A model generated the notes under the pieces. The model saw nothing but the letters and a program-made list of their open reading frames with translations, made no database searches and had not been told where the DNA came from. Below, piece after piece: positions 6,530 through 38,371 of a stretch of DNA of 64,000 bases (positions are counted from its first letter, which is position 1; every line of letters starts with the position of its first letter). Source of the stretch: Spironucleus salmonicida (lineage: Eukaryota); contig NC_090603.1 in assembly GCF_000497125.1 (NCBI RefSeq), forward strand, positions 806,001 to 870,000, in the 5' to 3' direction. The position numbers and the translations under genes were made by a program.

Positions 6530-6531
6530 TT

Positions 6532-8564: not shown

Positions 8565-8573
8565 CCACTCCAA

Positions 8574-8801: not shown

Positions 8802-8810
8802 TGTGTTCTC

Positions 8811-18049: not shown

Positions 18050-18122
18050 TATTGTAATATTAATATTATTGCCTTCCAGAATATCCCTGTTCGGAAAGCT
18101 TACGCCGGAGCAGACGCTGAAG

Positions 18123-19445
18123 ATGCGCTCTTTGGCCGACGAGTACCTCGGCTTCCTCAGCAAGTACCACGCTGACAGGGAGCGCGTCCAGTGGGCCCAG
18201 GCCCTCCTGCTCTCCAAAGGATTCGTGCATCGCGAGCTCGGCGACGAGGCCGGCCTCCGCCCCGGCGACAGGTTCTTCTACGTGAACCACCACAAGAGCC
18301 TGATCGCTGGCGTGTGCGGCACCGCCACCGCTGACTCGGGCTTCACCTTCGTGGGGGCGCACGGGGACTACCCGCACTTGGACCTCAAGCCCAACTTCGT
18401 GAACGCGATGAAGGACCAGGGCGTGGTCACGCTCAAGTGCCACTACTTCGGTGGCGTCAAGAAGTACCAGCAGGCCACCACGCCCATGATCCTCAAGGGG
18501 TTCGTGCAGCGCCCCGACGGGCTGCACTCCTTCACCGTCGGCGACAAGCCCTCCGACCCGGTGTTCACGATCCCCGACCTGCTCATCCACCTCTCGTCGG
18601 AGCAGGCAGAGCGCAAGATGCGCGACGTCGTGAAGGGCGAGGAGCTCAACACGCTCGCCATGTCGGCCCCAGCGGACGACACGGTCGAGATGACGCCCGC
18701 CTTCCTGGCGCTCCTCGAACGCGAGACCGGGGTCACCGCCGCCGAGGTACCCTTCTGCGAGTTTCAGCTCTTCCCCGCCTTCCCCGCGCGCTTCGTCGGC
18801 CTCGACCGCAGCATGATCGGCGGTCCCGGCCAGGACGACGGCATCTGCGTGTTCACCGAGATGCACGCCCTGGTGGACCTCCAGGACACCCCCGCGGCTA
18901 CGGCCGTCGCCTGCATCTATGGCTACGAGGAGACCGGCTCCAGCGGCTGCACGGGCGCCCAGTCCGGCTCGCTCGTGTACACCCTCAAGGACGTCATGTA
19001 CGCGCTGGGCCTCGCCGAGCGCCAGCACGCCCGCGCCTTCTACAGGTCGCTGCTGGTCTCGGCGGACGTCACGGCCCTCTTCGACCCGAACTTCCCCGCG
19101 GTGCACGACAAGCTCAACGCCGCAGTGATGAACCGCGGCATCGGGCTCAGTCGCTACACCGGCTCTGGGGGCAAGAACGGGTCGTCCGAGGCCCCGACGG
19201 AGCTGCTGCACGCCATCCGCACCTGCGTCGGCGACGACTTCCTCTACCAGTTCGCCAACCTCGGCAGAATCGACATCGGCGGCGGCGGCACCATCGCGAA
19301 GTTCATCGGCGAACGCATGAACGCCCCCGTGGTGGACATGGGCCCCGGCCTCCTGAACATGCACAGCCCCTTCGAGGTGTGCGGCGTCGCGGACCTCTGG
19401 AGCGCGTACGAGGTGTACGGCAGGATCTTCGCCAACCACAAGTGA
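18123..19445 (+). CDS. M18 aminopeptidase copy lacking the original start codon (ATA at 18081); 440 aa from the next Met
   Basis: ATA TCC CTG TTC GGA here versus ATG TCA CTA TTC GGA in the left copy; the rest is nearly identical. Confidence 0.75.
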   Translation: MRSLADEYLGFLSKYHADRERVQWAQALLLSKGFVHRELGDEAGLRPGDRFFYVNHHKSLIAGVCGTATADSGFTFVGAHGDYPHLDLKPNFVNAMKDQGVVTLKCHYFGGVKKYQQATTPMILKGFVQRPDGLHSFTVGDKPSDPVFTIPDLLIHLSSEQAERKMRDVVKGEELNTLAMSAPADDTVEMTPAFLALLERETGVTAAEVPFCEFQLFPAFPARFVGLDRSMIGGPGQDDGICVFTEMHALVDLQDTPAATAVACIYGYEETGSSGCTGAQSGSLVYTLKDVMYALGLAERQHARAFYRSLLVSADVTALFDPNFPAVHDKLNAAVMNRGIGLSRYTGSGGKNGSSEAPTELLHAIRTCVGDDFLYQFANLGRIDIGGGGTIAKFIGERMNAPVVDMGPGLLNMHSPFEVCGVADLWSAYEVYGRIFANHK

Positions 19446-19454
19446 GAGAACACA

Positions 19455-19682
19455 TCACTACTGCTCCAGCGCGGCTATCTTCTCGAGGTAAATCTGCTGC
19501 TCCTGCAATATCCGGCCCTCGCGCTCCGTGAGCTCCGCTAGCTGCGTCTCAAGCCCCCGCAGCTCCGCGTCCACGGCCGCCACGCCCTCGGCCACCTCAG
19601 CGTCGTACTGGGCCGTGCGGGGCGTCTGTCGGAGCAGGAGGTCCTGGATGAAGCCGGCCGCCACGAACTCGCGCTCGTCCAT
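19455..19682 (-). CDS. Small coiled-coil protein, 75 aa (IR1 copy)
   Basis: Mirror of 8574-8801. Confidence 0.7.
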
Positions 19683-19691
19683 TTGGAGTGG

Positions 19692-20066
19692 TCACTTCCC
19701 GCTCCCCACCATTCGCTGCAGGCGGATTGCGCTCTCGTTGGGGGCCAGCGCCACCCAGTTGGTCGGCGTCGCAGCGCTGCTGGCAGGCCGGGGGGTGGCG
19801 CGCGGCGGCCCGATCCTGGACCGCGGGTGCATGGTGGACACCTCGCAGAACACGGCCCGGGCCTGGAACTCCAGGCGGGCCCTGCTAACGTCGAAGCGGA
19901 ACATGCGGGGCGGCTGGGGAGTCGTCCCTCCCTCCGGGACGTCCGGGGGCCGTTCCGCCGGACAGGGCGCGCGGGGAGCCAGCAGCGGCACCACCACCGC
20001 CTCGAAGTCGTCGCTGAAGAAGGCCTGCGCGCGCACCGGCCGCGGGTTCTCGCGCGTGAATAGCAT
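19692..20066 (-). CDS. Hypothetical protein, 124 aa (IR1 copy)
   Basis: Mirror of 8190-8564. Confidence 0.6.
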   Translation of the reverse strand: MLFTRENPRPVRAQAFFSDDFEAVVVPLLAPRAPCPAERPPDVPEGGTTPQPPRMFRFDVSRARLEFQARAVFCEVSTMHPRSRIGPPRATPRPASSAATPTNWVALAPNESAIRLQRMVGSGK

Positions 20067-20095
20067 TTGGAGTGGGCTCTCTGCGACGGGTCATA

Positions 20096-21724
20096 ATGTC
20101 GACCGGCCTGCACCTGCTGCGCGCCCTCCGGCACCGCGACTTCGCCCTCGCCCCGGAGGCCCTGGCGCCCCTCTTCTCGCCCTTCGCTGACTTTCACGCG
20201 CCCCCGCGGTCGTCGGCCGCCCTGGAGGACCTGCTGGCCCGGGTGTTCGCGCTGCGCCTGGCCCCGGACGAACGCGAGGCGCGCGCCCTGGTGCAGGAGG
20301 CGGACCCTTTGGCCGCCCAGCTGCAGATGCTGCGCAGCTTTCCGGCGGTGCTGGCGCTGGCCCGGCAGCGGCAGGTCTTCCAGCTCGTGCTCGTGTTCAA
20401 GAGCGCCCACTTCACCGGCTCTGAGGTGGGCGCAGAGGTGCTGGGCATGGCGCTCGCGAACGCGGGCTACTTCCGGGCCCGCGAGCTGGCGGCACTGGCC
20501 GGGAAGGTGGACGGTGCGCGGCTATCCCTCCAGCACAAGGTCGCTCTCGCCGCAGTAGACGACACGATTCTATTGGAGCTCGTCGGTGCTGGGTAACTGG
20601 CCCCGGAGCACCTCACCACGGACCAGCTGTGCGCGGCCGTCCCGGCGATCCCCACGGGCGCACTCTGTGCCTGCATCGGCCAGCGGCACCTCTCAGCACG
20701 GCACATCCTGCAGCTGGGCGAGGCGCTGCCTGAGAACGGGCTCGTGCTGGAGTTCCTCTGCTTCACCGCCCTGCGCGCTGGCTCCTTCAGCGCCGTCCTG
20801 GCCCGCGACGGCGACGACAACGCGGCCTTCTACGCCGAGCTGGAACGCCTCCCCACGGTACCAGAGCGCATGCAGTTCCTGGGACAGAGCGAGAGCGGCT
20901 GGCTGCATGCCACGGGCCTCATGCTGGTGTACTACCGCGAACTGGCCGAGGGGCGGGCGACGTCTGCCGTGGCGGTGGCGAGGGAGCTGCGGGTGCTCTT
21001 TGCGGAGGTCCCCGGGATGCGCCTAGCGGAGATGTTCTGCCTGGTCGAGTTCGGGGAGGTGCTGGACCCCGGCCTCGCCTCGCCTGAGTTCGCCGCGCTG
21101 GTGTGCCCCTTGCTGAACCGGCCCGCGCGGTGCCTGCTCGCAGCGCAGGCCGACGTGAGCACGGCTGCTGCGGTAGTGTGCCTGGACTGCGAGGTGCTGG
21201 TGGCGCTGGACGGCCCCAGGGTGGGAGAGATCGCGCGCCACTTGGGGGCCGAGGGATCGGACCTTCTTGCGCTCTGCACGCTGTACCCCTATGCGGACCA
21301 GGCGCTCGTGCAGTAGACCGTGGAGCAGCGGGGCGTGCTGCACCAGCTGACCACCGCAGAGAGGGACGCGTTCGAGTTCGCCTCGGGCCTGCTGCCGGAC
21401 CGGGGGCGACTGGCGGCCCTCGCGTCGCTCCTGGACGCCATGCATCACCCCACGCCATGCGACTTCGATGACATCTACATGGCACTGCTCGCTGCGGACG
21501 AGCTAGTGGGAGGTCTGGGTTTCCGGGCGCTGGCCCTCTCTGCCGCTGCGCTGGAGCGATACTTCGGGGGCCTGACCGCGGCGCTGCGCCAGAACGTGCT
21601 ATATCGCTACTTTTCCACCGAGCTGATGCTCTTCGTGCCCGCATTCCTCCCGGTGAGCGGCCTCTCCCGGCACCAGGTGGCGGAGGTGCTGGCGTACCGG
21701 TACTGGGCGGCACAAGAGGAATGA
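20096..21724 (+). CDS. Hypothetical helical protein, 542 aa (IR1 copy)
   Basis: Mirror of 6532-8160. Confidence 0.75.
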
Positions 21725-21726
21725 AA

Positions 21727-22812
21727 TCACTGAGTGGGCGTCACGGGCTTCCCCATTCGCTGCAGATCCATGCAGGAGGCGATCCGCTTGCACGCCTCGG
21801 CAGGGTCGTCGGTGAAGGACGTGTTCTGGAGGCACTGCAGCATCTCGCCTCGGAGGCCGTCCAGCGTCCCGCTGCGGGCCCGCATCTGCACGTCGTCCAG
21901 GCCGACGGTCCGGTGGCAGAAGAACGCCCGAAGCACTACCCCCGCAGCGAGGACCACGATCGCGATCCCGAGCACCGAGATGAGGAACATCGCCTGCCCG
22001 AGCTGAATCTTGAGCTCATTGGCCTCCTTGGTGAGGTCCAGCAGGTCCTGGTTAATCCGGACGAACAGGTTCCTGCTAAGCGCCTTCTCCTGCTGGAACT
22101 CGAGCCCGAAATCGCCATGGTCCGCACCACTCACCGGGGCGTGCTGGAATTACCGCATGAAGAGCGTCTCGTCGAAGTTCTGCTCCAGCATCTTGAGGAT
22201 GTTGTTTCCGTACACCCCGATGTTGCCGATCTGGCACATATGGAACTTGTTCTCGAACACGCTGAACTCAAAGCGGATGGACTTGACAGCGTCCGGGTGG
22301 TCCACCTTGAACATTCCCCCGCGGGAGTTGAGCGCAATGTTGCCGACCTCGACGCCTTCTGCGGACATGCGCACCTGCCGCAGGTTGGATGCGAAAGGCT
22401 GGCTGGAGAAGAAGTTGAGGTACTGGATGTGAACTGGCCGAATGAATGTGATCTGCATTGCGTAGAAGTCGTTCCTGCACGGGAACACCACGCTCTTGCG
22501 CGATTTCAGCAGGCTCTTGCAGTCCGGAATGTTGCAGGAGTTGATGAAGGCGTTGTATTCCTGGGAGGCGTAGTTTGCGGTGAGCTGCTTGATTTCGTTC
22601 GTATACGGCAACTCTATAATGTTCCTCGACGTAGGCGGTACTGCAGGCTGGGCCCTGGTCATCCAGTTGAAGTTATGTGTTAGATGCTGCTGAATTACAA
22701 TTATTGAAAATGTTAATAGAAAACTATAGGCGAATAAATTCATCCGTAATGACCTCTAAGGTACTACATCACGTTTCTATTTATTTTACTAATCATTGCA
22801 ACAATAACTCAT
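21727..22812 (-). CDS. Mid-SUN (Slp1/SUCO-like) membrane protein, full-length copy, 361 aa
   Basis: Frame extends beyond the arm into AT-rich DNA (MSYCC...LFAYSFLLTFSIIVI, a TM helix). Internal TAA at 22150-22152 corresponds to CAA in the other copy. Confidence 0.72.
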
Positions 22813-24099: not shown

Positions 24100-24552
24100 T
24101 CACTTAGAAATAGCAGTTTATAACTGTAAAATATAGTTATTCTATTAGGCAACATGATCCGCAAGCTTTTTATTATTGTCTTAGTGTATGCATAATTAAA
24201 CAGTATTAGATAAATGTAGTTACTATAAATGAATATCAACTTCTTGCTAAATCATATCTTAGAATGAAATTGTTTGTGTTTCCATGTTAACAGCGTGCGG
24301 AGTTTTTAATAAAGATTATATATTTTAATTCTCCGCTAGAAGTTTCGAGATTAGAAGTGAAATGTGCTTTAAGTCGCTCTACGCTTTCTCTGCGGAGGGG
24401 CCCTGGCCGGCGTGGAGGTCGGCGAGCCTGGCCTCGAGGAGCCTGTTCTGGGCCTCGAGCGAGCCATTGAGCTCCACGAGCTGCTCAGTGCTCCAGAAGG
24501 CCGGGATACTCGACGGGATGGCGAGCCTCGGGGTGCCGGTGCTGGCGTTCAT
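24100..24552 (-). CDS. Coiled-coil protein, 150 aa, paralog A (first half inside IR2)
   Basis: Frame runs from the GC-rich arm into AT-rich DNA and ends AAGTGA; same length as 37919-38371. Confidence 0.75.
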
Positions 24553-24683
24553 TGTGGGCGGGGGAATCGGATGTGGTGGGTTTGTGCGGAATGGTGTATC
24601 CTAGAAATAGGAATGACTCCGGGATGTTTCTGCCATCCGGGTATTCCTCCGGACCACTCCGGGGTTTGTAGGGCCCGCTCCGC

Positions 24684-25100
24684 ATGGACGCCCAGCACCG
24701 CGACGTGGTCTCCCAGAGCCGCGTGCAGACCCTGCTGCTGCAGAACGCTCTCATGCTCTTCACGTACCAGACCCTCACGGCCGCCTTCCGCGCCGGGGAG
24801 GCCCCGCTCTCGCTCTACGCGATCCCCTGCTGCTACCTCGCGATCGACGCGGTCGCAGCCGGCGTGTCCCTGCACTGCTCGGTGCTCGCGGTGCGCACCC
24901 GGCCCGGCGGGCAGCAGACCCTCCCCACCAACTGCCTCAAGGGGCCCGCCTACGGCGCCGTGCTTGCCCTCGCCTGGGCCTTCGTGCTGGTGCTCCAGGG
25001 CGCGGGGAGCATCGCGGGGGTGGTGTCGGGGGTCGCACTGGCCTTCTCCGCCGTGATGCTGGCCGTCCTCGGCGTCGCCCTCACGGTCCCGGCCGAGTGA
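24684..25100 (+). CDS. Multi-pass membrane protein, 138 aa (IR2 copy)
   Basis: About four hydrophobic segments; ends GAGTGA. Confidence 0.65.
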   Translation: MDAQHRDVVSQSRVQTLLLQNALMLFTYQTLTAAFRAGEAPLSLYAIPCCYLAIDAVAAGVSLHCSVLAVRTRPGGQQTLPTNCLKGPAYGAVLALAWAFVLVLQGAGSIAGVVSGVALAFSAVMLAVLGVALTVPAE

Positions 25101-25116
25101 GGTAATTCCACTCCAC

Positions 25117-25611
25117 ATGAGCACTCTGGTCGTGCCCGAAGCGGAGGCAGGCAAGGCGGCCTACCTGATCCGGCGCTTCGGCCTGGCTGGGGTCGTGCCG
25201 CACCCCCTCTCCTACTACTGCCTGCAGCGCTCCTTCTTCGACGCCGGCCCGCTGTAGCCGCGCCTCTTCTTCCGCCGGCCGGTCGAGGCGGGCCGCTGGG
25301 TCGCTGTGTCCCACATCTCGCAGTCGCTGGAGGCCGACCTGATAGTTTCCGACGACTTCGGGACCGCCGTCGGCGCCCTGCTCCTCGCAGCCGGGGTGGA
25401 GCTGGCGCCCGCGAGCGCTGCCCAGGCCGAGCGGGAGCTGGGCAGGAGACCCGTGTATCGGGAGCTGGACCGCATCACGGCCATCCCGGGTGTGGGCCCG
25501 GTGCAGGGCCAGCACCTCCTGGAGCAGTTCGGCAGCCTGCGCGAGATCATGCGCCTGGTGCGCGGGGGGCATCGCCTGGGCATCCGGGGTCTGGAGCAGA
25601 TGCTGCAGTGA
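25117..25611 (+). CDS. ERCC1/FAAP24-like helix-hairpin-helix protein, 164 aa (IR2 copy)
   Basis: ITAIPGVGPVQGQHLLEQFGSLREI HhH motif; CCACTCCAC-ATG start; one internal TAG. Confidence 0.65.
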
Positions 25612-25619
25612 CCAATTCC

Positions 25620-26084
25620 TCACTCGACCTGCACCACCTCGCACGCCTCGTTCTTGCCGTCCAGCTGCCCCAGGCGCTGAAGCTCCTCCATCCCGGCGGC
25701 GACGGTGCCACACTGCACGAGGTCCCGCAGCGGGAGCTCCGCAAACGCCACCACGAACTCGCTGGCGCCCGATATACAGTACACGCCACTCGCCGCGGTG
25801 CGAACGGCCCCCTGGAACTGGACCTCGGGGGCGTCCTCGGAGGGGCAGCCGAACTGCGCGTAGAGGTCCGTGAAGACTGGCTGGACGTAGGTGTTCAGCA
25901 GCTGCGGCTTGAGCCTCTTCACGCCGACCAGCGTGGGGCAGCAGACCCGGCGCAGCAGCTTGATCGCCTGCAGCTGTGTCTCGTCGGGCGAAGGCAGCAG
26001 CTGGATGGTGAGGTGGAAGCAGGTGTGCTCCGAGCACAGCTTGAGGTCCAGGTGCTTCGTGAGCTGCGGCGTCGACAACCGCAT
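25620..26084 (-). CDS. Hypothetical protein, 154 aa (IR2 copy)
   Basis: GC3-biased frame MRLSTPQL...; ends GAGTGA. Confidence 0.65.
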   Translation of the reverse strand: MRLSTPQLTKHLDLKLCSEHTCFHLTIQLLPSPDETQLQAIKLLRRVCCPTLVGVKRLKPQLLNTYVQPVFTDLYAQFGCPSEDAPEVQFQGAVRTAASGVYCISGASEFVVAFAELPLRDLVQCGTVAAGMEELQRLGQLDGKNEACEVVQVE

Positions 26085-26131
26085 TGTTGCGGTCTTCAGG
26101 ATTATTATATATATTCCGCCATCGTATCCCA

Positions 26132-26197
26132 ATGCGCAGCGCCCTCATCCCGCTGTCCTCCCTCGAGTACTCGTAGTCAGCCGTCTAAGAAATCTTC
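26132..26197 (+). pseudogene. 5' fragment (22 codons) of the 35842-36339 gene
   Basis: MRSALIPLSSLEYSQSAVQEIF, after which no similarity to the intact copy is visible. Confidence 0.55.
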
Positions 26198-26319
26198 AGC
26201 TAGAGTTCATAAAAAGATTTCGTAATTATTTTTACCAGGAACTTAAAAATTATGTAAATTTATATTAACTTTTATAAAACTGTGTTTACTAATAAAAAAA
26301 TAATAGTAAAATTCATACA

Positions 26320-27237
26320 TCAAATTAACTTTTTAATTCTTTTCCCCATTTCTCTTATACAGTCCATATACTAAATTGCCATTTCTGCTTCTTCATTTTA
26401 ATTATACAATAAACTACTTTGATGTTTTAATTTTTACTTTAATTTCTTATATTTTTCTTAACTTAGTTTTAATTTTTTTTCTAGCTCTTTAACTCGGTTG
26501 GATAAATAAATATCTTTAGAACTATTTTAGGAGTCATTGATGTTGTCTGCGTTTAATGACTAGTAAATATTAAAATTTTCCTTTGTATAAGGTGTTATAT
26601 GTTAAACAGAAGCAGATTTATTCATATTTATACCCATATCTTAATTATGAGTGCTATCCAACTCAATATTATATGAATCAAAATACGATTACGTTTCAAT
26701 AGATTTATATTAACATTGGTTTTAAGTTGATTAAGATTTTTATAAGTTGATATTATCTAGTACTAAAGAGTCTATAAGAGATTAATATTTCTTTGTGGAT
26801 TCAAATTATTACTAAGTTTAAATTAGGTATTCACGTTCCTAATGTTAATATTTTAAAATTAAATCCTATTAATGCTAAATTTATGAGTTTTAATTAGCTA
26901 TTTATAATTCTAATAACAATGTTTACTCTTAATTTTAATTCTATATAGAAACTATTTAACATTAGCTTTTGGTACTACTATCATCATTTTCTGATAACAA
27001 TTCTGCTGTCAAAAATAATTACTTATCCATACAGTTTGTATGAGATGTCTAAGAAAGGTGCACATTTGATTATGATATTTAGCTATCTAATACTTGTTTA
27101 AATGAATCTTATAATAAGCTAATAGTTTTGTTGCTAATAGATTCATAAGTTTTTGGTTAGGAAGAGCGGCAAAAAGAAACACGTTACCTACTTTGGTAGT
27201 AATTTTGTTCTTTGAGTTTATCTAGTAGATTTGGCAT
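26320..27237 (-). CDS. Gln-rich coiled-coil protein, 305 aa
   Basis: Translated through without TGA; weak resemblance (ELLSEND, ETQSYFD) to the 150-aa family. Confidence 0.65.
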
Positions 27238-27617
27238 TTTTCTTATGATTATATACTATTTTTATTTATATATACTGATGAATTACATCCTTATCTAAAT
27301 ATTTTATTTTATTATTAGTTCATGTGATAGTAAATATTCTTTGATTTTTCAAAATACTAATTTGGTTAAAGTAATAATATATATATATATGTAAAACTTA
27401 ATATATCAAATCAAGAAATATACTACTTATTATAATATTTAATATATATCAATAATATTTGTTTTAGTATTATTTGAATGAAATAAGCTCTTTATTACTT
27501 AAGCGTGTATATAGTTATAATACCATATTATCTAAATTAGTTACAAACTCTAATAATACTATCACATAAAACTAATATATTTAAATATATTAGTTTTATA
27601 AAAATAATAATCTACTC

Positions 27618-28172
27618 TCATTCATCCAAAAGACTCAGCAACCCTTATTTAATCTTTATCTGATATTAATTTTTATTTTCTATTTTTTAATTAGACTTAC
27701 TCTTCAGTTATTGTTCTAAATTTTTTATCTTAGCTTCCTATGATATCATTTATTCTGTAAGTCTTTATCTCTCTTAAATTAACTTATCACAGTCTCCTTA
27801 AATTCTATAATGCAAGGTAGCAGCTTGCACATTATAAGAATCTTCTATATGTAACTTAATAGATTATGCATTTATTTCGATATCTTAGCTGGTAATTTAA
27901 CTCTTCAGAAGTTATTATTATTTAAGGTCCTGATTTTCCTTTATAAGATTCGAAAGTAGAAATGATATTTAAGTTAAGTCAGCTTATGTGTTTTTCTTAG
28001 CTGTTCTAGGTGAATATGCGTATTTTTATAATTATTAAGTAAGCTTTTAGTTACATGATTATAATTAAGCAAAATGTTCTTTAAGAAATTTCAAGGAATG
28101 GTTAGATTCATCTATAACCGTAAATTAGGCAGAAGATAAATTGATTTGAGGCACTTATAAAATTATAGTCAT
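27618..28172 (-). CDS. Coiled-coil protein, 184 aa, diverged paralog of the 150-aa IR2-edge proteins
   Basis: TQADLTQISFLLSNLIKENQD versus AQSDLKHISLLISKLLAENKD. Confidence 0.7.
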
Positions 28173-28388
28173 TTTGTTATACTAACAAACCCAGTTATAT
28201 TTATTTATATTATATTATGAAATAAATTTCTGTCTAAATTTATTAATTCTATTCTAAATTAGTAAATGTGAAATATCATAAATATAATCTCATATAAAAT
28301 TAATTATTAAAATTATTTGATTGATGAAGATATTTATCCAAATAATTGTATATTATACTCGGTATACCCTCAAAATAATTTATTTCTT

Positions 28389-28829
28389 TCACTGATTTGA
28401 TGGAGTCATAATTTACTTTATTGTTTAATTCGCTAAGTAAAGGTTATTATTAATTAGTTTCCTTGATAATATTTTCAATTCTGTTAATTCGTCTTTTTAC
28501 TAAGTATTTTCATTGAACTATTAAATATTTTTATAAAGTTTTTAAATCATTATACTTTGTTATTATATATTTTATTATTATGCTGAATAATAACTGTTGT
28601 ATTAAAATTCAAACTATTAGTATTGCTTAATGATTCTTTATTATTCTTAAATAATAGAGTTCACCTCGTTTTCTGTTTATACTTCCTAATTAGACGTAGC
28701 ACATAACTAAAAACTTGTATTATTTATATCTTATTCTTGCTGTTATGATATAGATATCTTTAGTTAATTCAGTGATTAATTCATCTCAAATTAGATATCC
28801 GAGTAGGATTTTTAGTTGGGTTAAATCAT
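28389..28829 (-). CDS. Gln-rich coiled-coil protein, 146 aa
   Basis: Open code-6 frame ending CAGTGA. Confidence 0.5.
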
Positions 28830-28980
28830 CTAAAAATAATGTAGAGTGTTTGTAGAACGTATATCATTTATAAATCCTACTAATATAACTATTATATTTA
28901 TGCTTATTTTTACTTTGAATAGTTTAAAAAATTGTTTCGTTATTAAGTAAACTTTTGATAAAAATTCGATCACTATAAAA

Positions 28981-29247
28981 TCATCCAGGACACATCATTT
29001 TTACCCCAACAATAATTGCCACAATCCATCCCCAGAATATAAAGCATGTGAAGAACATACTAGCACCTGCCACCATCACACCACAACAGGAGGGCCTAAA
29101 GCATCCGTAGCAGCAAATTGAGCAAATACATAAACCTGAACCAGGGAAGAAGATGTTTACTAATCCGGCACAGCATTGGCAGCGTTCAAAATGTGGTTCC
29201 TAACATTTGAAAAAGATATCACAACAAGAAGGCTCCTCATTCGACAT
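28981..29247 (-). CDS. Cys-rich small membrane protein, SPEC3/Stum-like, 88 aa
   Basis: LVNIFFPGSG...FIFWGWIVAIIVG pattern. Confidence 0.6.
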
Positions 29248-29862
29248 TTTGAGCTGTTGTAGAAAGTAGATTAAAAGATATTGTTTAAATACTATTTACT
29301 ATAAAATCATAAGTTTATCTAATTCTTTAACCTCCATCAATACATATACATCATTCTGGATTGAACTAAGACTTAAAATTTATATTTATAACTATTAAAA
29401 TTCTTTTTATAATCAAGAATAATGTTACTTAACTACTATACATATTCTTTAGCGGACTAAATTATACTATTAATATTGTACACTATTTTTTTTCAATTTT
29501 AGTTCAAATTTACATATATACTTAGCTTTACCGTTATTTAAACACACTGAATATAGTAGGTTTAAAGCGAAAATATTAACAAATCGAGTAATTTTTCATT
29601 ATTAATGCTGAACCCTAACTCAATATGTTATTTTCTTAATAACAAACGTTTGGATCTCGGAAATTGTACCAAACTCACCAAAATACTTTCATTCTACTCG
29701 CAAAATCCATATTTTATAACCCTCAAATTCTTGCATTATATCAACTCAGCCTTCCTAAGGCGTCTTTTTCTAAAATTTCAACCAGATAAAACCGCTAACC
29801 TCAAGGAAATTACCGTATCTTCCTATTTTCCGAAAAAATATCTCAGTATCACTTAAAATCAC

Positions 29863-30369
29863 TCACTCGTAGCTCCGCATACACACCAAAATCTGATTCA
29901 GGATAGAGTCGACCACCGCCTCGCAAAACGCGACGTCGACTACGACCTTTTCCACTTCCAAATTCACGCCAAATCCAATTTCCGGCAGCTCCTTCAGCGG
30001 CTGCTCCTCAAATTTCACAGAAAAATCGGTGGTTTTGCCGTCAAACTCAGTAGAATTTTCGTGTAATTTGCAGAACGAAACACCGACGGCATCGGCGTAG
30101 CATCCGAGAAGCGCAGGCTCAGAGCAAGAAGGAAATGCGCAGCGCGCTACATTTGCGGATGCTGGAAAGTGGTGCGCGCAGAATTTCGCGTGGGGGAGTG
30201 CTGGAAACTAACAGAAAACGCATTTAGTAGAAGGGGGCGATTTGAACGTTTTCGGATGTACCTGCGAAATAGCTGTTGATTTCAGAAGAATTGGTGTAAT
30301 TGGCTGCGAAAATAGGTCAGGTTATGTTTAAAGAGCTAGATAAGCATTAATTTTGTCAATATTTGACAT
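29863..30369 (-). CDS. Zinc-finger protein of the zf-C3Hc3H (KANSL2/INO80D-like) type, 168 aa
   Basis: CVFCQFPALPHAKFCAHH...RCAFPSCSEP...FCKLH; ends GAGTGA. Confidence 0.65.
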
Positions 30370-30455
30370 TTTCTAGAGTGGTGTGAATTAATAAAATTTA
30401 TAATAGTATATGATAAATATTTATATAATTATCCGTTCCTATATTTCTTAAAGTA

Positions 30456-31382
30456 ATGTCAGATCATGAAAATAAGTAGGAAGAAGTGGAGTTAGATATT
30501 TTTAATGCTCTAAGTTCCAAAAAAGTATCAGATAGGATATCAGGTATAAATGCTTTTCAAAGCTACCTAAAGACAAATGATCCAATTACAGATTTATCAG
30601 ATGCAATTATTACATGTTTCAAAAAGTAGCCAGATAACCCAGAATTGTTCGATTTCTTATCTCATTTTATATTAACGAACACTACAGAAGATTTAGAAAA
30701 CAGTATTTTCTCTTTCTTTGATGATTAGAGAATTTCGATTCTTCTTAATTAACCATCTTCAGATTCGTTGATAATTTTTGCATCTATTTATTAAGTTTTT
30801 ATTTCATCATCCGATCTAATTGTGTAGAAGTTATTTGAATTATTCAAAGATAGGCCAACAGAAACTCTATGTACGGCTCTTTCATATATTACAGTTTCTA
30901 ATTTAGAGTTAGTTTAGCATCTTATATAGTAAACTGAAACCATTCAATCTTTATTAGAAAGTGATAATATTAGTCTATAAATAGGAGCAGCACGTTTGGC
31001 ACTATCGTCTGCAGTAGCTGAAAATTACGTTTCCAACTTTGAAGAGTTAAATGATATTTATGGTTATAAAATTAGTACAGAAAATAAGAAACTTTACAGA
31101 AAAAGCTTTGGTGAATTTTTGGACGAACTAAATGGAGAATTTAAAGGCGAAAATATAAAAATTGGTCGCGAAACTATTGAAATTGATAGTAGAGAATTTC
31201 AGGACAGATATGATATGATTAAGAATGGTATAAATGATGGAAATCTGAATTACTGGTTGTGTAAAGGCTTGAGAGTTAGGGAATTTTTAGGTTTAGGAGA
31301 TGTGGTAACCGATGTAATTTCAAAAAGACAATCAAAATAAGAAAAATAACACGAAAAAATAAAAAGAAAATAGAACAAGTGA
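30456..31382 (+). CDS. IFRD (interferon-related developmental regulator)-like protein, 308 aa
   Basis: KKLYRKSFGEFL...ENIKIGRETIEIDS...RYD...VREFLGL resembles the IFRD C-terminal region; ends AAGTGA. Confidence 0.7.
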
Positions 31383-31441
31383 TAAATCATTCTTTGTATG
31401 TATAATATATATGTTATATAATTCCGCTCCAAATTTACAAA

Positions 31442-33220
31442 ATGTTATCTATGCTTTCTTCGGCACATGTGGGAAATGACACCACAATGGCTTCTTCTCG
31501 TTACCCTAATTTTACTGATTTTGGTATTAAGTCTCAAATAATTGCGTAGTCACCTTTACCAGGGTAAATGTCTGGTCCAAAACTTCAGTAAGTATCTGAT
31601 GAGCCTTTATAATATAAAACTTCTACCAAATTAAATCTTGAAATGAATACTGAAAATTCAATTTCAGTATCAGTTCTGACAAAAAATGGCGGATCATTGG
31701 TCGCCAAAGCCAGCTCATTAGGGTCAGTAGATGGATTTTGTAAACCCTTATTAGAGAAAGTAGATGAAGAATGTTATTAATGTAAATTGTATGCACGGGG
31801 ATAGTTTGTGGGAACAGGTGAAACTAAGATTACGATCTCTGAAAATCTTACAGATATATGCTCAATTATTTTAGAATTTTAAGTTATTGAATAGAAGCAA
31901 ACATAAAGTGGTTTTAACCCTTATTCAAACCAAGCATAAATTCCTCCACCTCCTTAAGCTTCAGTATCATTTTAGAATCAGTCTATAAATAATTAAACAG
32001 GAGTTTACACAACTTAAATGATGAACTAACATATGAATCAAACATAACATTCTAACACACCTGCAACTTTTTATCCAGGTATATCATATGCTCCTAATTA
32101 GTCAATTTATGATGCTCCAAATAACTACTCTTCATAAATTAATTAACCAACTCCAGCCCCTTAGTAGTTTTAATCAAATGTTACTCCTCTTTAAAATTAT
32201 ACATAAGTACCATTATCTGTTCCAGTTAATGCACCATCTGTGGATATTTAGAATTATGATTAGTAGTAGCAGTAGCAGCATTTCTAAAATTCAATGCATA
32301 ATTCAAGATCTTAAAACATACTTAAATAATCAATTGCATAGACACATTCGCACGATAATCAAATACATGTACCTAATACCCGAGAATCGATTAACAACAT
32401 TGTTACTTCAAATAAGGTAATTCGTGTTTTACCATCTGATGCTATATTTCCACCAGCAGACGCTATGCATCCATCGGTACGTCCAATACGTGTAAGAAAT
32501 GTATTCAATGAACCATTATAGATATCTTGTTCTATTATAGGAAGAAGTTATGACCCTGATATTGAAAAAAATGTTAACTGTTGTAAAACAAATTAACCAT
32601 TCACTATTGTTTAGAATTAAAAATTTACACTTTAAAATTGCGTAGATCCTGATTAAGAAATAATTTCACAAGATGTTATCATATAATTTTAACCGAGAAA
32701 TGCATAAATTACTGAGCAACAATAGTGGTTATTTGCTGCGAAACTGGTTATTTAAGTAGTTGGGCAGACTGTTAAAAAATCATTTTAGGTACCTTTATTA
32801 GGTGCTTTTGGTTAACCTGATATTGTTACGAAAATCATTTCTAATAACTAGTTGATGATTGAAAATATAGGCTAGTGTCCATCGTTTTTAAGACTTAAAC
32901 CAGTGATATCTGGTTAGAACAAGAAACATGCTAGAAATGCTATTCAAGCTCCATTAGCACTTGATTTTGATAGCTTGGTTTTGCAACCTGGTTAATGCTA
33001 AACAGTAAGATTAACTTAAATTTAAACAGAATATAATATGAGTACTGATGAAACTGTATGTATTGAAATTAGATATGGTCATGAAGCTTTACGACTTTTA
33101 GCTTTGGCTAGTGAAGGTAAGGGTGCTTGGAAAGGAATTTATGATGTTTTAAGAATTAAAGATGATGTTTTAAGAGTCATGGGTAATTGCTTAGAATGTT
33201 AAATTGTGGAAATTTAATGA
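31442..33220 (+). CDS. Hypothetical protein, 592 aa; Q/P-rich linker and possible Ig-like (ASH/MSP-type) C-terminal domains
   Basis: ATG and TGA in frame; IRVRN, IENIG and LVLQPGQ motifs are only suggestive. Confidence 0.6.
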
Positions 33221-33365
33221 TTTGTTGTTTATATAGTTTATTAGTATAATAACTATTATTATTACCACAAGTAGATTTGAAGTTATTTTAAAGAATTAAG
33301 ATAATATTATAATTATAAATAATTATAATAATATATTATAGTTAGAATATTATTTAAAGATTTAA

Positions 33366-34745
33366 ATGATTAGAGCGCTTCAATTTCTCATAGCTGTCTT
33401 TTCATTTATTACTATAAAATTAACCTTTTCACATTTAAATTGTTTTAAGAATCCATCAAGGTAGATGTTTGTTATCAACATCATCAGACTTTCAACCTCA
33501 ATTTTATCCTCATATTTTTTATATTAAAATTAAAACTAAAATTCATGGCTGCTATTCTTAATTGGATCTCCAACTTTCTTCCTTAATTTTCCAAATGTAA
33601 AATTTTTCCGCAAACAAAAAATAGATCATAAAGTTCATTTTTCTATAATTTCATCTTCCTTTTTTATTCTTCCATTATTTTTTGTTTTTGTACTTACTAT
33701 TCATATTTTTAAGTTAGAGCTCATTTTTGCTTATTTAACTTCGGAGTTATGGTTTTCAACATATCCAGTTTTGAAGTTTAATAGAAATAGAAATATGCTT
33801 ATCTAAATTAAAGAATTTCTGTCACTATCTGCAGTATATTATGCATTTTAAGGAAATGAGAAATTAGCTAACAACTAACTTTTATCATCCATTATTATTG
33901 CCTTTTTTAATTTTACATTTTGCTCAATACCAAAATTTTGGTATGCGAACATCATTTCGCTTTTAAATATGCTTTGTGGTATTATCGCAATTTATAAGTA
34001 GATTTTCGAGTTTTCAACAAAACCCCAATTTCGTGTTCTGTTCTACGTACTAGCTGGCCAGTTTTTCGATGTATTTGATGGTCGTGCGGCGGATAGATTT
34101 GGCAGTACAAAATATGGAGAAATGTTTGATGATGCTGCTGATTTTACTAGTTTTGGTGTAGCCACTGGAGTATTAATATATTAGAGTTTCCATCACACTT
34201 TTTATTTTTCGCATTCTGTTTCACTAATAAGTGCTATGTTTTATATTTCTTGCGTAGCTTTTCGTCTCGTGCGTTTTGTTATTAATAAGCACAAATCAGG
34301 AAAAACTGGTGGAGTTCGTTTCTTCGAGGGCCTACCTAGCCCGGCAACGAGTGCATTCGTGATTACTTTAACCGTCGGAATTTAAAGCTTTAAAATGTAG
34401 AATTTGAGTGTTTTTGAACATTATAAAAAAATTATATAGGTTATCTATTTGGGTTTAATTATTTGTATTCTTACTCTTACTGTATCAAAAATAAAATATG
34501 CCCATTTTGGGCGTGTTTTCGCAAGCAAAGACTTTGTTTCGCACAAAGCTATGGGTATGTGTGGGTTTGCGTTAATAAGTGCTGTTTCATAGTGTATTGT
34601 TACTAAAAATCCGGATGGTATAGTTGGGTTTGGAATAGTTGGTATAGTTTGGTATATTTTTTCACCAATTTTGACTTAAAAGCTATATTTGAGAGCTGAG
34701 ACTGCGGATATGGAAAGTAGCGAAACAGATGACAAAGATGAGTGA
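33366..34745 (+). CDS. CDP-alcohol phosphatidyltransferase (PssA/phosphatidylserine synthase type), 459 aa
   Basis: DVFDGRAADRFG...GEMFDDAADFTSFG, RLVRF and FEGLPSPA motifs. Confidence 0.88.
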
Positions 34746-35030
34746 AACTAATTGTAATACTTGAATGGTCCAATTTATTATGATCAACAATTATTTTACC
34801 ACACGAAATAATAAAAATCTATAAAATTATCAACTAGTTAGTTTATTATTTATTAGGGAAAACATACCTAAGAATTTAGAATAAAATATTATAAAATTTT
34901 TAACTATTAAGTAAAAATCTTTAACTGTATTATATTTTAATTAATTAGTTCATTTACGAATATATTTTATAAATATCTATACTATATTATATATAAATAT
35001 ATTAAAAAATTATTTTTTGTCCTCTAAGAA

Positions 35031-35645
35031 ATGAGTGACGCTTCAACATATAACGGAGGAGCTATCCTAGCTATGAAAGGCAAAAACTGTGTTGTAGTTG
35101 CAACAGATAAGCGTTTAGGCGCAAGTTATTAAACAATAACAATGAATTACCCTAAAATCTCCCAGCCTAATAAGTCTTGTCTCTTGGCCATTGCTGGTTT
35201 TGCCTCAGATGCTCAGATGCTTCATAGAGATTTAGCATCAAGATGCGAACTTTTTGAGTTTGAAAACAATCGCTCTCTTACCCCTTCAGAGCTCATAAAT
35301 CTAGTATCTGCCGTACTTTATGAAAAACGATTTGGTCCACTTTTCGTCTCACCAATCATTGCTGGTATGGAAGGAGATATTTCAATTGTCGGTGGACATG
35401 ATTCTATTGGTGCTCCTGCCATCAGCGACTGGATCGTTGATGGTACTGCGAATGAGTTCTTACTAGGTCCAGCTTAGATGTACTGGAAAGAAGGAATGGG
35501 AAAAGAAGAACTAATTGAGTGTGCTAGTAAAGTTATGTAAGCAGGAACTAACAGGGATGCATATTCAGGATGGGGTATATAAATTCACTGCATGGAAGCA
35601 GATGGGTCCATGGAAATAAGAGATATAGCTTGCAGAATGGACTGA
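35031..35645 (+). CDS. PSMB3: 20S proteasome subunit beta-3, 204 aa
   Basis: [38 protein letters not shown], terminal RMD. Confidence 0.95.
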
Positions 35646-35841
35646 GTGAAATGTGTAGGGATAATATTAGATTAGTTGATTTATGTATATCAGATTTATC
35701 TTAATATTATTTTGTAAATAAAAGATTATGTATATTTATGGAGTCAAATATTAAATATAAAAAGAAATAAATTTTCTAACAATCTTTATTTTTATTAGCA
35801 AACTCAAGTGTTTACGTATAAAATTTAATTTCTTCCACCAA

Positions 35842-36339
35842 TCACTTCTTCACATCAAATTCTAAAAAATTCTTTTGCCTTAACGTCATATCAGCAGCCC
35901 TTTATTTGCTTGAATTAACTTCAACAGCTTTATAAAAACTTTACCAAGTGTTCTTTTTTTCAATTGGTTTAATTATTTTTTATTTAAACTGGTTAGCTCC
36001 AAGATAAGCTTATTATTGCTAAATAAAGCTATTTTCAAAAAGTTGTGTATTATTACTAGATTTAAGTTAAATTCTCTTAGGAATTTATCTCTCCTTCCGC
36101 AATCTATCAATTTCATCTGTTAGAGTTCTTTATAATATTTAATGTGCTTCTATGCGTTATTTATTAAGGAAATTTGCATATATTTTTTCTTTATGCAAGA
36201 CTGGGTTGGAGAATACTTAAGGTCTTATTGGCTAGGATCTAATAGGAGACATAAGTGATGTATCTACACGATCAAATATTTCTTAGACGGCTGACTACGA
36301 GTACTCGAGGGAGGACAGCGGGATGAGGGCGCTGCGCAT
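35842..36339 (-). CDS. Hypothetical protein, 165 aa, straddling the inner edge of IR2
   Basis: First ~20 codons GC-rich and inside the arm, remainder AT-rich; ends AAGTGA. Confidence 0.7.
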
Positions 36340-36386
36340 TGGGATACGATGGCGGAATATATATAATAATCCTGAAGACCGCAACA

Positions 36387-36851
36387 ATGCGGTTGTCGAC
36401 GCCGCAGCTCACGAAGCACCTGGACCTCAAGCTGTGCTCGGAGCACACCTGCTTCCACCTCACCATCCAGCTGCTGCCTTCGCCCGACGAGACACAGCTG
36501 CAGGCGATCAAGCTGCTGCGCCGGGTCTGCTGCCCCACGCTGGTCGGCGTGAAGAGGCTCAAGCCGCAGCTGCTGAACACCTACGTCCAGCCAGTCTTCA
36601 CGGACCTCTACGCGCAGTTCGGCTGCCCCTCCGAGGACGCCCCCGAGGTCCAGTTCCAGGGGGCCGTTCGCACCGCGGCGAGTGGCGTGTACTGTATATC
36701 GGGCGCCAGCGAGTTCGTGGTGGCGTTTGCGGAGCTCCCGCTGCGGGACCTCGTGCAGTGTGGCACCGTCGCCGCCGGGATGGAGGAGCTTCAGCGCCTG
36801 GGGCAGCTGGACGGCAAGAACGAGGCGTGCGAGGTGGTGCAGGTCGAGTGA
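36387..36851 (+). CDS. Hypothetical protein, 154 aa (IR2 copy)
   Basis: Mirror of 25620-26084. Confidence 0.65.
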   Translation: MRLSTPQLTKHLDLKLCSEHTCFHLTIQLLPSPDETQLQAIKLLRRVCCPTLVGVKRLKPQLLNTYVQPVFTDLYAQFGCPSEDAPEVQFQGAVRTAASGVYCISGASEFVVAFAELPLRDLVQCGTVAAGMEELQRLGQLDGKNEACEVVQVE

Positions 36852-36859
36852 GGAATTGG

Positions 36860-37354
36860 TCACTGCAGCATCTGCTCCAGACCCCGGATGCCCAGGCGAT
36901 GCCCCCCGCGCACCAGGCGCATGATCTCGCGCAGGCTGCCGAACTGCTCCAGGAGGTGCTGGCCCTGCACCGGGCCCACACCCGGGATGGCCGTGATGCG
37001 GTCCAGCTCCCGATACACGGGCCTCCTGCCCAGCTCCCGCTCGGCCTGGGCAGCGCTCGCGGGCGCCAGCTCCACCCCGGCTGCGAGGAGCAGGGCGCCG
37101 ACGGCGGTCCCGAAGTCGTCGGAAACTATCAGGTCGGCCTCCAGCGACTGCGAGATGTGGGACACAGCGACCCAGCGGCCCGCCTCGACCGGCCGGCGGA
37201 AGAAGAGGCGCGGCTACAGCGGGCCGGCGTCGAAGAAGGAGCGCTGCAGGCAGTAGTAGGAGAGGGGGTGCGGCACGACCCCAGCCAGGCCGAAGCGCCG
37301 GATCAGGTAGGCCGCCTTGCCTGCCTCCGCTTCGGGCACGACCAGAGTGCTCAT
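36860..37354 (-). CDS. ERCC1/FAAP24-like HhH protein, 164 aa (IR2 copy)
   Basis: Mirror of 25117-25611. Confidence 0.65.
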
Positions 37355-37370
37355 GTGGAGTGGAATTACC

Positions 37371-37787
37371 TCACTCGGCCGGGACCGTGAGGGCGACGCC
37401 GAGGACGGCCAGCATCACGGCGGAGAAGGCCAGTGCGACCCCCGACACCACCCCCGCGATGCTCCCCGCGCCCTGGAGCACCAGCACGAAGGCCCAGGCG
37501 AGGGCAAGCACGGCGCCGTAGGCGGGCCCCTTGAGGCAGTTGGTGGGGAGGGTCTGCTGCCCGCCGGGCCGGGTGCGCACCGCGAGCACCGAGCAGTACA
37601 GGGACACGCCGGCTGCGACCGCGTCGATCGCGAGGTAGCAGCAGGGGATCGCGTAGAGCGAGAGCGGGGCCTCCCCGGCGCGGAAGGCGGCCGTGAGGGT
37701 CTGGTACGTGAAGAGCATGAGAGCGTTCTGCAGCAGCAGGGTCTGCACGCGGCTCTGGGAGACCACGTCGCGGTGCTGGGCGTCCAT
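37371..37787 (-). CDS. Multi-pass membrane protein, 138 aa (IR2 copy)
   Basis: Mirror of 24684-25100. Confidence 0.65.
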   Translation of the reverse strand: MDAQHRDVVSQSRVQTLLLQNALMLFTYQTLTAAFRAGEAPLSLYAIPCCYLAIDAVAAGVSLYCSVLAVRTRPGGQQTLPTNCLKGPAYGAVLALAWAFVLVLQGAGSIAGVVSGVALAFSAVMLAVLGVALTVPAE

Positions 37788-37918
37788 GCGGAGCGGGCCC
37801 TACAAACCCCGGAGTGGTCCGGAGGAATACCCGGATGGCAGAAACATCCCGGAGTCATTCCTATTTCTAGGATACACCATTCCGCACAAACCCACCACAT
37901 CCGATTCCCCCGCCCACA

Positions 37919-38371
37919 ATGAACGCCAGCACCGGCACCCCGAGGCTCTCCATCCCGTCGAGGATCCCGGCCTTCTGGAGCACTGAGCAGCTCGTGGAGC
38001 TCAATGGCTCGCTCGAGGCCCAGAACAGGCTCCTCGAGGCCAGGCTCGCCGACCTCCACGCCGGCCAGGGCCCCTCCGCAGAGAAAGCGTAGAGCGACTT
38101 AAAGCACATTTCACTTCTAATCTCGAAACTTCTAGCGGAGAATAAGGATATTCAAAGTTCATTACAGAGATCCACTACTTGTAATTCGTCGACTGAGACA
38201 CAGTATTTTGACGAAATAGCTTAGTAGGTCGTGGATGAAAAACTTGAATAACTAGAAGCGTAAAATCTGATGTATTACTTTTAACAATAAAGCGATAATC
38301 GTAGAGTTTAAAAATATGTTGATTAATAGAAATAGTGTATTTAGCAGTTGCAACAGAAGCTTAATATATGA
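37919..38371 (+). CDS. Coiled-coil protein, 150 aa, paralog B (first half inside IR2)
   Basis: Open frame across the arm edge at 38143. Confidence 0.75.

Follow-up and report, generated by a model that had tools for sequence, protein, structure and literature searches.

Primate sex chromosomes carry palindromes in which inverted arms, more than 99% identical, enclose a unique spacer and are raised in GC relative to their flanks. On the primate X the arms stand at about 46% GC against 41% in the flanks, a difference of 5 points attributed to biased conversion (Jackson et al. 2021, PMC8981503). Ectopic biased conversion has also been described for rDNA arrays, histone genes and human segmental duplications (Galtier 2001, Galtier 2003, Zhang 2005, cited in PMC8981503), multi-copy families in which mutually converting repeats become GC-richer than single-copy DNA. 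In the AT-rich genome of Spironucleus salmonicida, a member of the Hexamitinae with TGA as sole stop codon, duplicates that are 2 kb or longer and 95% or more identical take up 19.2% of the sequence and have a mean of 44.7% GC against 30.7% elsewhere (Xu et al. 2022, PMC9509377). In the passages of that paper that deal with duplicates the GC content is given as an average without a cause, and gene conversion is invoked for the expansion of surface-protein genes only (PMC9509377). Our literature search found no paper that connects diplomonad repeats with biased gene conversion. The large inverted repeat of plastids offers a further comparison: its arms are homogenized by conversion and evolve more slowly than single-copy regions, its borders cut genes and move, and its effect on GC is small.

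The window analyzed here, 64,000 nucleotides of S. salmonicida DNA, contains two inverted repeats, IR1 and IR2, each with near-identical inverted arms around a unique spacer. The identity cores of IR1 (5584..10166 and 18090..22672) are 4583 nt long, differ at 12 sites and are separated by about 7.9 kb; those of IR2 (24328..26193 and 36278..38143) are 1866 nt long, 99.8% identical (4 differences) and separated by about 10.1 kb. GC-content is 66.9% in the IR1 cores and 67.0% in those of IR2, compared to 28.0% in the rest of the window. The anatomy is that of the primate palindromes, in identity, spacer and raised GC, and in both systems the identity of the arms understates their age and the borders between arm and flank can move with time. 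The two differ in scale and setting: here the arms exceed their surroundings by 39 points (67% compared to 28% GC) and reach a GC3 above 0.9, they are 1.9 and 4.6 kb long and full of intronless genes, one edge is intragenic, and the host, a diplomonad, uses a reassigned genetic code. Unlike the multi-copy families, which resemble it in that converting repeats become GC-rich, the locus has just two copies, inverted, with a control inside a single gene; unlike the plastid repeat it is nuclear, its GC effect is extreme and its border is apparently fixed. The window fits the published description of duplicated regions in S. salmonicida, as far as that description goes, and adds to it an intragenic boundary, a plateau at 67% GC and effects on codons.

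The left core of IR1 contains a 311-aa gene, a 542-aa gene and an M18 aminopeptidase. Each arm of IR2 carries three genes besides the one that crosses its edge: one for a hydrophobic product of up to 169 aa (24591..25100, forward strand; mirror 37371–37880, reverse strand; GC3 0.91), which has no Pfam family; an orphan of 164 aa (25117..25611, forward; mirror 36860–37354, reverse; GC3 0.91), in which Pfam matches a helix-hairpin-helix only weakly, under its cut-off; and one of 154 aa (25620..26084, reverse; mirror 36387–36851, forward; GC3 0.93), likewise without a Pfam family. A search for tRNA genes found none.

The outer edge of IR2 lies within a gene. Translation with table 6 yields two frames, CDS A (24100..24552, reverse strand), with its head within the left arm and its tail outside, and CDS B (37919..38371, forward strand), its mirror image across IR2. 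Each encodes 150 aa followed by TGA, and both products are present in a public protein collection at that length with an exact letter match. The two stop codons mirror each other to the base (24100 + 38371 = 62471, the mirror sum of IR2), which together with the translation confirms the pair of frames described in the initial annotation. Code 6 here is the diplomonad (Hexamitinae) usage, not that of ciliates: a ciliate host was considered and rejected because an arm gene finds its best named matches in Hexamita inflata.

Over the heads (codons 1–75) the two genes differ at 2 of 225 bases, at 24522/37949 and 24508/37963; both differences are non-synonymous (A11S and S15R) and synonymous differences number zero. 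Identity ends between 24327 and 24328 on the left and between 38143 and 38144 on the right, the first differing pair being 24327/38144, precisely at the edge first proposed (24328/38143). The heads had been described as some 75 GC-rich codons with two residue differences; the differences are as stated, but GC-richness is confined to codons 1–58. GC3 is 0.91 in these codons and 0.47 in codons 59–75 (24328..24378, reverse strand; mirror 38093–38143), an edge zone of intermediate composition that is the same in A and B. It drops to 0.24 in tail A (24100..24327, reverse strand; stop context AAGTGA) and 0.32 in tail B (38144..38371, forward strand), the AT-rich stretches that comprise codons 76–150 and the stop.

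The tails align without a gap at exactly 25 of 75 residues, which bears out the earlier hand count and lies beyond every one of 20,000 shuffles (mean 6.5, maximum 16). Ungapped BLOSUM62 scoring gives a z of 7.9, the local alignment score was reached by none of 2,000 shuffles, and at the DNA level 114 of 225 bases match, compared to 67 ± 6.6 in shuffled sequences. No indel separates tail A from tail B. Their divergence amounts to a pS of 0.64, a dS of about 1.4 and a dN of 0.70; dS is near saturation, so that age and dN/dS (about 0.5) are rough only. Across the edge, then, dS passes from 0 to about 1.4 as GC3 falls along the gene. Along the mirror diagonal beyond the IR2 outer edge, consecutive 45-nt intervals contain 18, 25, 22, 25 and 21 matches against a background of 13.5 ± 3.2; similarity extends 207 nt, to the stop codon, and is at background level further out. 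Matches thus do not thin out away from the edge, which suggests a boundary that has long stood in one place and not one in gradual retreat. Mirror-diagonal counts show no similarity at the inner edges of IR2 and IR1, and blastn of the outer and inner flanks of IR2 gave no colinear match beyond the tails (the sole colinear one, 152–185, lies inside the tail). At the IR1 outer edge the diagonal is slightly raised, at 14–22 matches per 45 nt.

Tails that remain in exact register near synonymous saturation, next to heads with no synonymous difference, exclude that the unit as a whole was duplicated recently. The data support an old duplication in A and B, with homogenization now limited to the core: the arms are far older than their identity implies, which is the mark of concerted evolution. 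The initial annotation had proposed an ancient and once larger duplication of which the core alone is still homogenized; its age and its core hold, and the larger extent is demonstrated for 207 nt only.

It is conceivable that A and B are simply old, diverged paralogs and that a single recent conversion or replacement copied a GC-rich block of 1.9 kb, already present at one site, to the other, with no continuing homogenization. Four differences in 1866 nt suit one recent event equally well, and the GC edge and the identity edge are about 50 nt apart. An event driven by homology, however, needs similarity at both ends and hence an older repeat already present, whereas a non-homologous paste would rarely preserve frame and register to the base, and the mirror sum is exact. 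A single event also leaves the GC richness itself unexplained, and IR1 independently has the same anatomy. We regard this account as quite unlikely.

The composition of the arms raises the question of their origin, on which a third paralog is informative. P0003 (27618..28172, reverse strand; 184 aa) lies in the spacer of IR2 and is wholly AT-rich (GC3 0.23), yet its N-terminal half matches the GC-rich head. Among 180 other ORFs of at least 100 aa (182 found, minus the 178-aa ORFs that contain A and B) it is the best match to A and B, with pairwise BLASTP E-values of 2e-5 and 1e-4. Against the head only, z is 6.4 and none of 3,000 shuffles scored as high; the similarity of tails A and B to P0003 is not significant (z 0.9 and −0.9). 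A tblastn search of the window with A, B and P0003 returned nothing beyond self and A–B matches at E ≤ 0.1, so the link to P0003 is drawn from pairwise BLASTP, ranking and shuffles. The edge zone, codons 59–75, is the most conserved block across the three paralogs. Since an AT-rich gene matches the GC-rich head, the head is native DNA.

Beyond the window the family has no visible relatives: none was found among 5.8 billion clusters or 1.84 billion representatives, the 2 candidates retained out of 32 were A and B themselves, and a profile search returned P0001 and P0003 only. Pfam holds no family for A and a single match below cut-off for B (ANG-1-like, 19.8 bits against 28.5); nothing exceeded the cut-off in any of the three paralogs or in the five arm genes besides the M18 peptidase. 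The 164-aa arm protein matched only itself among 698 candidates. A structure model of the 150-aa protein consists of three long helices (pLDDT 74, pTM 0.27), and for P0003 an Atlas look-up yielded nothing but helical clusters that are unnamed or generic (TM 0.52 or lower).

Several of these properties might be expected if the GC-rich blocks were a foreign insert, of bacterial, viral or symbiont origin, that was later duplicated, the 150-aa frames being chance fusions: the composition steps from 28% to 67% GC, the arm genes are for the most part orphans, and beyond Hexamita the relatives of the M18 peptidase are archaeal and bacterial. Against this, the head is homologous to its AT-rich neighbor P0003, arm genes contain TAA and TAG in frame, as the host's code allows, and the best named matches of the M18 peptidase are proteins of another diplomonad, Hexamita inflata, at 51% and 48% identity. 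These three observations together rule out a foreign origin, and the arms do not qualify as a horizontally acquired island. In addition, frame, register and the conserved block cross the GC edge unbroken in both A and B. An insert from elsewhere is therefore very improbable. Relative to its H. inflata counterparts the M18 peptidase is richer in Gly/Ala/Arg/Pro, with a share of 0.30 compared to 0.20–0.21.

Read contigs bear on whether the arrangement is real. In a DNA run (X1), record 2 spans exactly 24328..26193, the left core of IR2; the contigs of tail A and tail B share one core end, each reaching 30 nt into it with undiminished depth, and the same holds for the two inner flanks. Contigs X5–X7 look like RNA from their gene-wise depth and from a stretch of poly-A following the proteasome gene at 35661, although none of the listed runs is recorded as RNA. 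Two of them, from a second study, bridge the right outer edge, X5 (36278–38271) and X6 (35877–38272), and X6 also bridges the right inner edge, with zero differing letters at the edges. Past the edge these putative RNA contigs continue along copy B for 128 nt, to 38271/38272; for this copy, transcripts that stop at the arm edge, the case that would have spoken against the initial annotation, are not what is seen. The contigs carry both forms at three of the sites at which the arms differ. None is listed on tail A (24100–24327) or beyond 38272, which are holes between contigs and silent on expression. The suggestion that the locus yields proteins with a constant N-half and a variable C-half accordingly holds for the reading frames; beyond these, the putative RNA reaches just 128 nt into tail B.

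A collapsed or misjoined repeat, or a chimera of two organisms, would gain some credence from the depth of the collapsed core contig in X1: its word depth is 170, against 137–186 in single-copy flanks, where two copies predict a doubling. Under-representation of GC-rich DNA may account for the shortfall. The flanking contigs that enter the core ends, the bridging contigs from the second study, and arms that differ at 4 and 12 sites, both forms recurring in putative RNA at three, make an assembly artefact hardly credible. The divergent tails had been advanced as evidence against recent duplication, foreign DNA and artefact; all three are rejected here, given the tail dS, P0003 and the edge-bridging contigs.

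Identity and GC-content change together. Of 254 segments of 200 nt with a GC-content of at least 0.5, just 4 lie entirely outside the cores, no 200-nt segment inside a core falls below 0.5, and at all four distinct edges the climb in GC lies no more than about 50 nt from the end of identity. GC3 is 0.86–0.95 in arm genes, compared to 0.19–0.30 outside; non-coding DNA is at 0.50–0.70 inside the arms and 0.16–0.21 outside; GC1, GC2 and the share of Gly/Ala/Arg/Pro are elevated as well. GC is thus raised at synonymous, non-coding and replacement sites alike, the pattern expected of biased conversion. The 311-aa gene retains an AT-type protein make-up (Phe/Tyr/Met/Ile/Asn/Lys share 0.30) despite a GC3 of 0.86. 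Glutamine is encoded in arm genes by CAG in place of TAA/TAG, of which 1 TAA and 4 TAG persist. Of the 16 differences between cores in IR1 and IR2, 15 pair G/C with A/T, the direction of change being unpolarized.

On this evidence, conversion would be the homogenizing process, and the high GC of the arms would stem from a bias of conversion towards G and C, read from the pattern, and not from a local bias in mutation. Conversion may instead keep the arms identical while GC-content derives from GC-biased mutation linked to recombination or repair, or from selection on composition or codon use in duplicated genes. Pattern data cannot tell biased fixation from biased mutation, and the enrichment of 39 points far exceeds the roughly 5 points of primate palindromes, so that a further or different force may act. 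The GC step in A and B is also abrupt, from 0.67 to 0.30 between neighboring 30-nt bins at codon 58/59, which speaks against a smooth gradient at tract ends, where a gentler fall is predicted. Codon selection, however, leaves the GC-rich non-coding DNA of the arms unexplained; the unrelated IR1 and IR2 agree (0.669 and 0.670), which fits the shared equilibrium of one regional process; and the excess of G/C-versus-A/T differences is as expected if AT-ward mutation is countered. We consider a separate source of GC unlikely.

The locus is probably a long-standing inverted duplication in which GC-biased conversion from arm to arm continues to homogenize the two copies. The duplication would have arisen in an AT-rich diplomonad genome and covered at least the whole small gene and three neighbors. 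The arms would then have kept exchanging sequence by non-reciprocal recombination, holding 1866 nt at 99.8% identity, and correction of heteroduplex mismatches in favor of G and C may have brought every class of site in the arms near 67% GC. Conversion tracts would end at a fixed point within the gene, just past the family's most conserved block. Beyond it the fast-evolving C-terminal halves presumably diverged long ago and lost the homology needed for conversion; such a loss could set the tract boundary and make the edge self-maintaining. Copy-correction favoring G and C is a known process, of which the locus would be a particularly clear instance and one of uncommon strength. From a GC3 of 0.21 outside the arms and 0.91 inside, a scaled bias B of about 3.6 may be put forward as a rough estimate.

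A more general proposition, which we advance only tentatively and hold to be somewhat doubtful, is that in this diplomonad exchange between repeats is frequent enough and GC-biased enough to draw any repeated sequence to a common plateau near 67% GC. If true, the make-up of proteins would be rewritten, with reassigned glutamine codons TAA/TAG turned to CAG; the signature would be among the strongest known for biased conversion; and the raised GC of the duplicates, which reportedly make up about a fifth of the genome, would be accounted for. The genome would also keep a record of its own recombination, in a lineage in which, to our knowledge, sex has not been observed.

Genes A and B provide a natural control within a gene: promoter, protein and history are shared, and one half lies in the converting tract. 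They show the reach of copy-correction, from GC3 (0.24–0.32 to 0.91) to amino-acid content, codon choice and use of the variant code, and their tails date the palindrome as old. Annotators and screens for horizontal transfer should expect native genes with foreign-looking composition. If the pattern is general to the genome, then the GC-content of repeats would be a read-out of recombination in diplomonads.

The repeat finder placed the two inverted repeats of the window at 5560-10201 and 18055-22696 (IR1) and at 24307-26196 and 36275-38164 (IR2). A base-by-base mirror comparison showed these ends to be ragged, and gave identical cores at 5584-10166 and 18090-22672 in IR1 (4583 nt, 12 differences) and at 24328-26193 and 36278-38143 in IR2 (1866 nt, 4 differences). 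The gap between the two repeats is only 1.6 kb (22697-24306) and holds one 389-aa gene (22918-24087, + strand).

The outer edges of IR2 cut a pair of paralogous genes, A (24100-24552, - strand) and B (37919-38371, + strand), so that codons 1-75 (the head) lie within the arm and codons 76-150 (the tail) beyond it. Translated with NCBI table 6, each gives 150 residues followed by TGA, and the stops are exact mirrors (24100 + 38371 = 62471, the mirror sum that pairs positions across IR2), just as the initial annotation had described; both products are present letter for letter, as 150-aa proteins, in a large protein collection. The two residue differences that had been reported between the heads are real and stem from two base differences, both non-synonymous; the accompanying description of these codons as GC-rich is slightly too broad, since GC3 is 0.91 in codons 1-58 but 0.47 in codons 59-75, where the copies are identical, before reaching 0.24 and 0.32 in the tails. 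The tails, for which a hand count had given about 25 identities without gaps, share exactly 25 of 75 residues in an ungapped alignment. None of 20000 composition-preserving shuffles exceeded 16 identities, the ungapped score has a z of 7.9, and the local alignment score was matched by 0 of 2000 shuffles: the similarity thus withstands a shuffled, Gln-rich control.

Two very large protein searches returned no relatives of A or B from outside the window. The proteins are predicted to form three long helices; the genomic result does not depend on what they do. A C-rich run stands directly 5' of the ATG in both genes, and A ends in AAGTGA (24100-24105); these features fit the promoter motif and the stop/poly-A signal, AGTGA, described for Spironucleus salmonicida in sections 10 and 11 of PMC3916229, whereas the stop context of B, TATGA (38366-38371), differs. 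The stop of A lies 12 nt from that of the convergent 389-aa gene (24087), the RNA contig of which ends at 24099.

The old homology was followed outward from the arm edge. Matches on the mirror diagonal, counted in 45-nt bins against a background of 13.5 +/- 3.2, number 18, 25, 22, 25 and 21, and then 8, 15, 14 and 12 in the next four bins; past the fifth bin the counts are at background, which means that detectable homology extends no further than the stop codon, 207 nt outward of 24307, the arm end given by the repeat finder. Similarity in the tails is flat with distance from the edge (8, 9 and 8 residue identities by thirds). Divergence there is near saturation (pS 0.64, dS about 1.4, dN 0.70), compared to a dS of 0 in the heads. 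This comparison of dS on either side of the edge, which had been proposed at the outset, supports, with the refinements given here, the view that the duplication is old and that the core alone is still homogenised. Conserved sites in the tails are most frequent at codon position 2 (46/75), followed by positions 1 (37/75) and 3 (31/75), and there are no indels; in combination, these features suggest that both tails remained coding as they drifted apart (hand chi-square, P about 0.05). The inner edge of IR2 and both edges of IR1 lie in or beside promoter DNA, and the mirror comparison detected no surviving similarity at any of them.

Contigs from sequencing runs bear on the structure of the locus. 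DNA run X1 is a possible source of the assembly, and its contigs break precisely at the core ends: one contig is 24328-26193, and the contigs of tail A, tail B and both inner flanks each extend 30 nt into a core end, an overlap below the tool's criterion for bridging. Word depth of the collapsed core contig (170) is not doubled relative to single-copy flanks (137-186), despite which the contig graph demands two core copies; DNA of 67% GC is possibly under-represented in this library. Runs X5-X7, from a second study and labelled as guessed RNA, are RNA-like in their gene-wise depth and in a poly-A run at 35661. Two of their contigs, X5 (36278-38271) and X6 (35877-38272), span the outer edge on the right and reach 128-129 nt into tail B with zero differing letters there, showing that transcripts of B run past the arm edge; termination at that edge was the second outcome that the initial annotation had named as refuting it. 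The contigs end 99-100 nt short of the stop of B, at 38271-38272, which may or may not be a real RNA end. X5 continues there into adapter letters, no poly-A run is present, and the depth of the adjacent bin is wholly explained by the two contigs. At 37949 and 37963 the right-arm letters appear in X5 and the left-arm letters in X6 and X7; at 37022 X5 and X6 both have the left-arm letter. Accordingly, both forms exist in that material.

Base composition follows the cores closely. GC-content is 66.9% in the IR1 core and 67.0% in that of IR2, compared to 28.0% in the remaining 51.1 kb and 26.5% and 28.5% in the spacers. No 200-nt window within the cores falls below 50% GC, and just four of the 254 windows of at least 50% lie wholly outside them, all at 29901-30250. 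This sole exception, within 29863-30369 (- strand), forms the 3' portion of a gene and has a GC3 of 0.5-0.6; it may be the partner of a repeat copy beyond the window, or GC-rich for another reason. Elsewhere, at 51001-53000, GC is mildly raised (0.37) and AT skew is strong (0.19-0.34) relative to adjoining sequence.

The enrichment affects every class of site. Genes in the arms, recognised as real by their three-base periodicity, have a GC3 of 0.86-0.95, compared to 0.19-0.30 in seven genes outside; six fully GC-rich arm genes encode Gln with 85 CAG, 2 CAA, 1 TAA and 4 TAG codons, whereas TAA predominates outside. Presumed non-coding DNA has a GC-content of 0.50-0.70 in the arms and 0.16-0.21 outside, although 8161-8810, counted here as non-coding, may be coding: this segment and its mirror (70% GC, between a 542-aa gene and an M18 gene) show shifting three-base periodicity and yielded no ORF call of 200 aa or more. 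The arm gene at 5594-6529 (+ strand) and its mirror, for which no Pfam family was found, encode an AT-type protein (Phe/Tyr/Met/Ile/Asn/Lys share 0.30; GC2 0.37) with a GC3 of 0.86; here synonymous sites seem to have shifted well ahead of the protein.

Is the GC-rich DNA native? The IR1 arm encodes an M18 aminopeptidase (Pfam E 3e-64), whose best named relatives are two proteins of Hexamita inflata (51% and 48% identity), followed by Asgard archaeal and clostridial proteins at about 40% (of 7998 candidates scored, 7925 reached E <= 0.001). These relatives place the host among the Hexamitinae diplomonads, which use table 6, and not among the ciliates. Its Gly/Ala/Arg/Pro share is 0.30 compared to 0.20-0.21 in the Hexamita proteins, which suggests that the shift arose in the lineage of the window. 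The left M18 copy begins with ATG at 10175 and the right has ATA at the mirror position, 18081; the collection form, at 440 aa, lacks 14 residues of the 454-aa frame, which would fit a start at Met15. The identity core does not begin until codon 4, and the copies therefore differ in their 5' ends and promoters.

A third paralog of A and B, P0003 (27618-28172, - strand), is located in the IR2 spacer and is AT-rich along its whole length (GC3 0.23). It matches A and B at E 2e-5 and 1e-4 (pairwise BLASTP). Of the 182 ORFs of 100 aa or more that a script called in the window, only the two 178-aa ORFs in which A and B lie (24100-24636 and 37835-38371) rank above it as matches to both genes. On its own, the GC-rich head still matches P0003 with a z of 6.4, a score attained in 0 of 3000 shuffles. 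The alignment continues unbroken across the GC edge, and conservation in it peaks at codons 59-75, the block that borders the identity edge on the head side. In-frame TAA and TAG are still present in arm genes. The P0003 match, its passage through the GC edge, the retained TAA and TAG codons and the M18 relatives show the arm DNA to be native and altered in place.

The locus is most simply read as an inverted duplication of long standing, with arms that still convert each other with a bias favoring GC. Such conversion would explain near-identical cores beside saturated tails, the four independent edges at which GC and identity change together, the gain in GC in every class of site (greatest at synonymous positions), the equal plateau in two unrelated repeats, and the fact that 15 of the 16 current, unpolarised arm differences are G/C-versus-A/T. 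A recombination-linked mutation bias that raises GC in place of biased conversion is a less likely but live rival. A simple model also has against it how abruptly GC steps at codon 58/59 and how large the effect is. Under continuing conversion the location of the edge, immediately after the family's most conserved block, might be understood as follows: selection would keep that block alike enough for tracts to pass through, while the fast-evolving tail would lose the homology that conversion needs, making the edge self-maintaining.

Our search for literature linking biased gene conversion with diplomonads found nothing relevant. According to the relevant portion of PMC9509377, duplicated regions of S. 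salmonicida average 44.7% GC compared to 30.7%, and that portion offers no mechanism; the present locus may be listed in its supplements. The same logic applies to primate X palindromes, where the portion of PMC8981503 concerned reports GC raised in the arms by about 5 points, compared to 39 here. The A/B palindrome is a new instance, of unusual strength, of a process already known, and not a new type of system.
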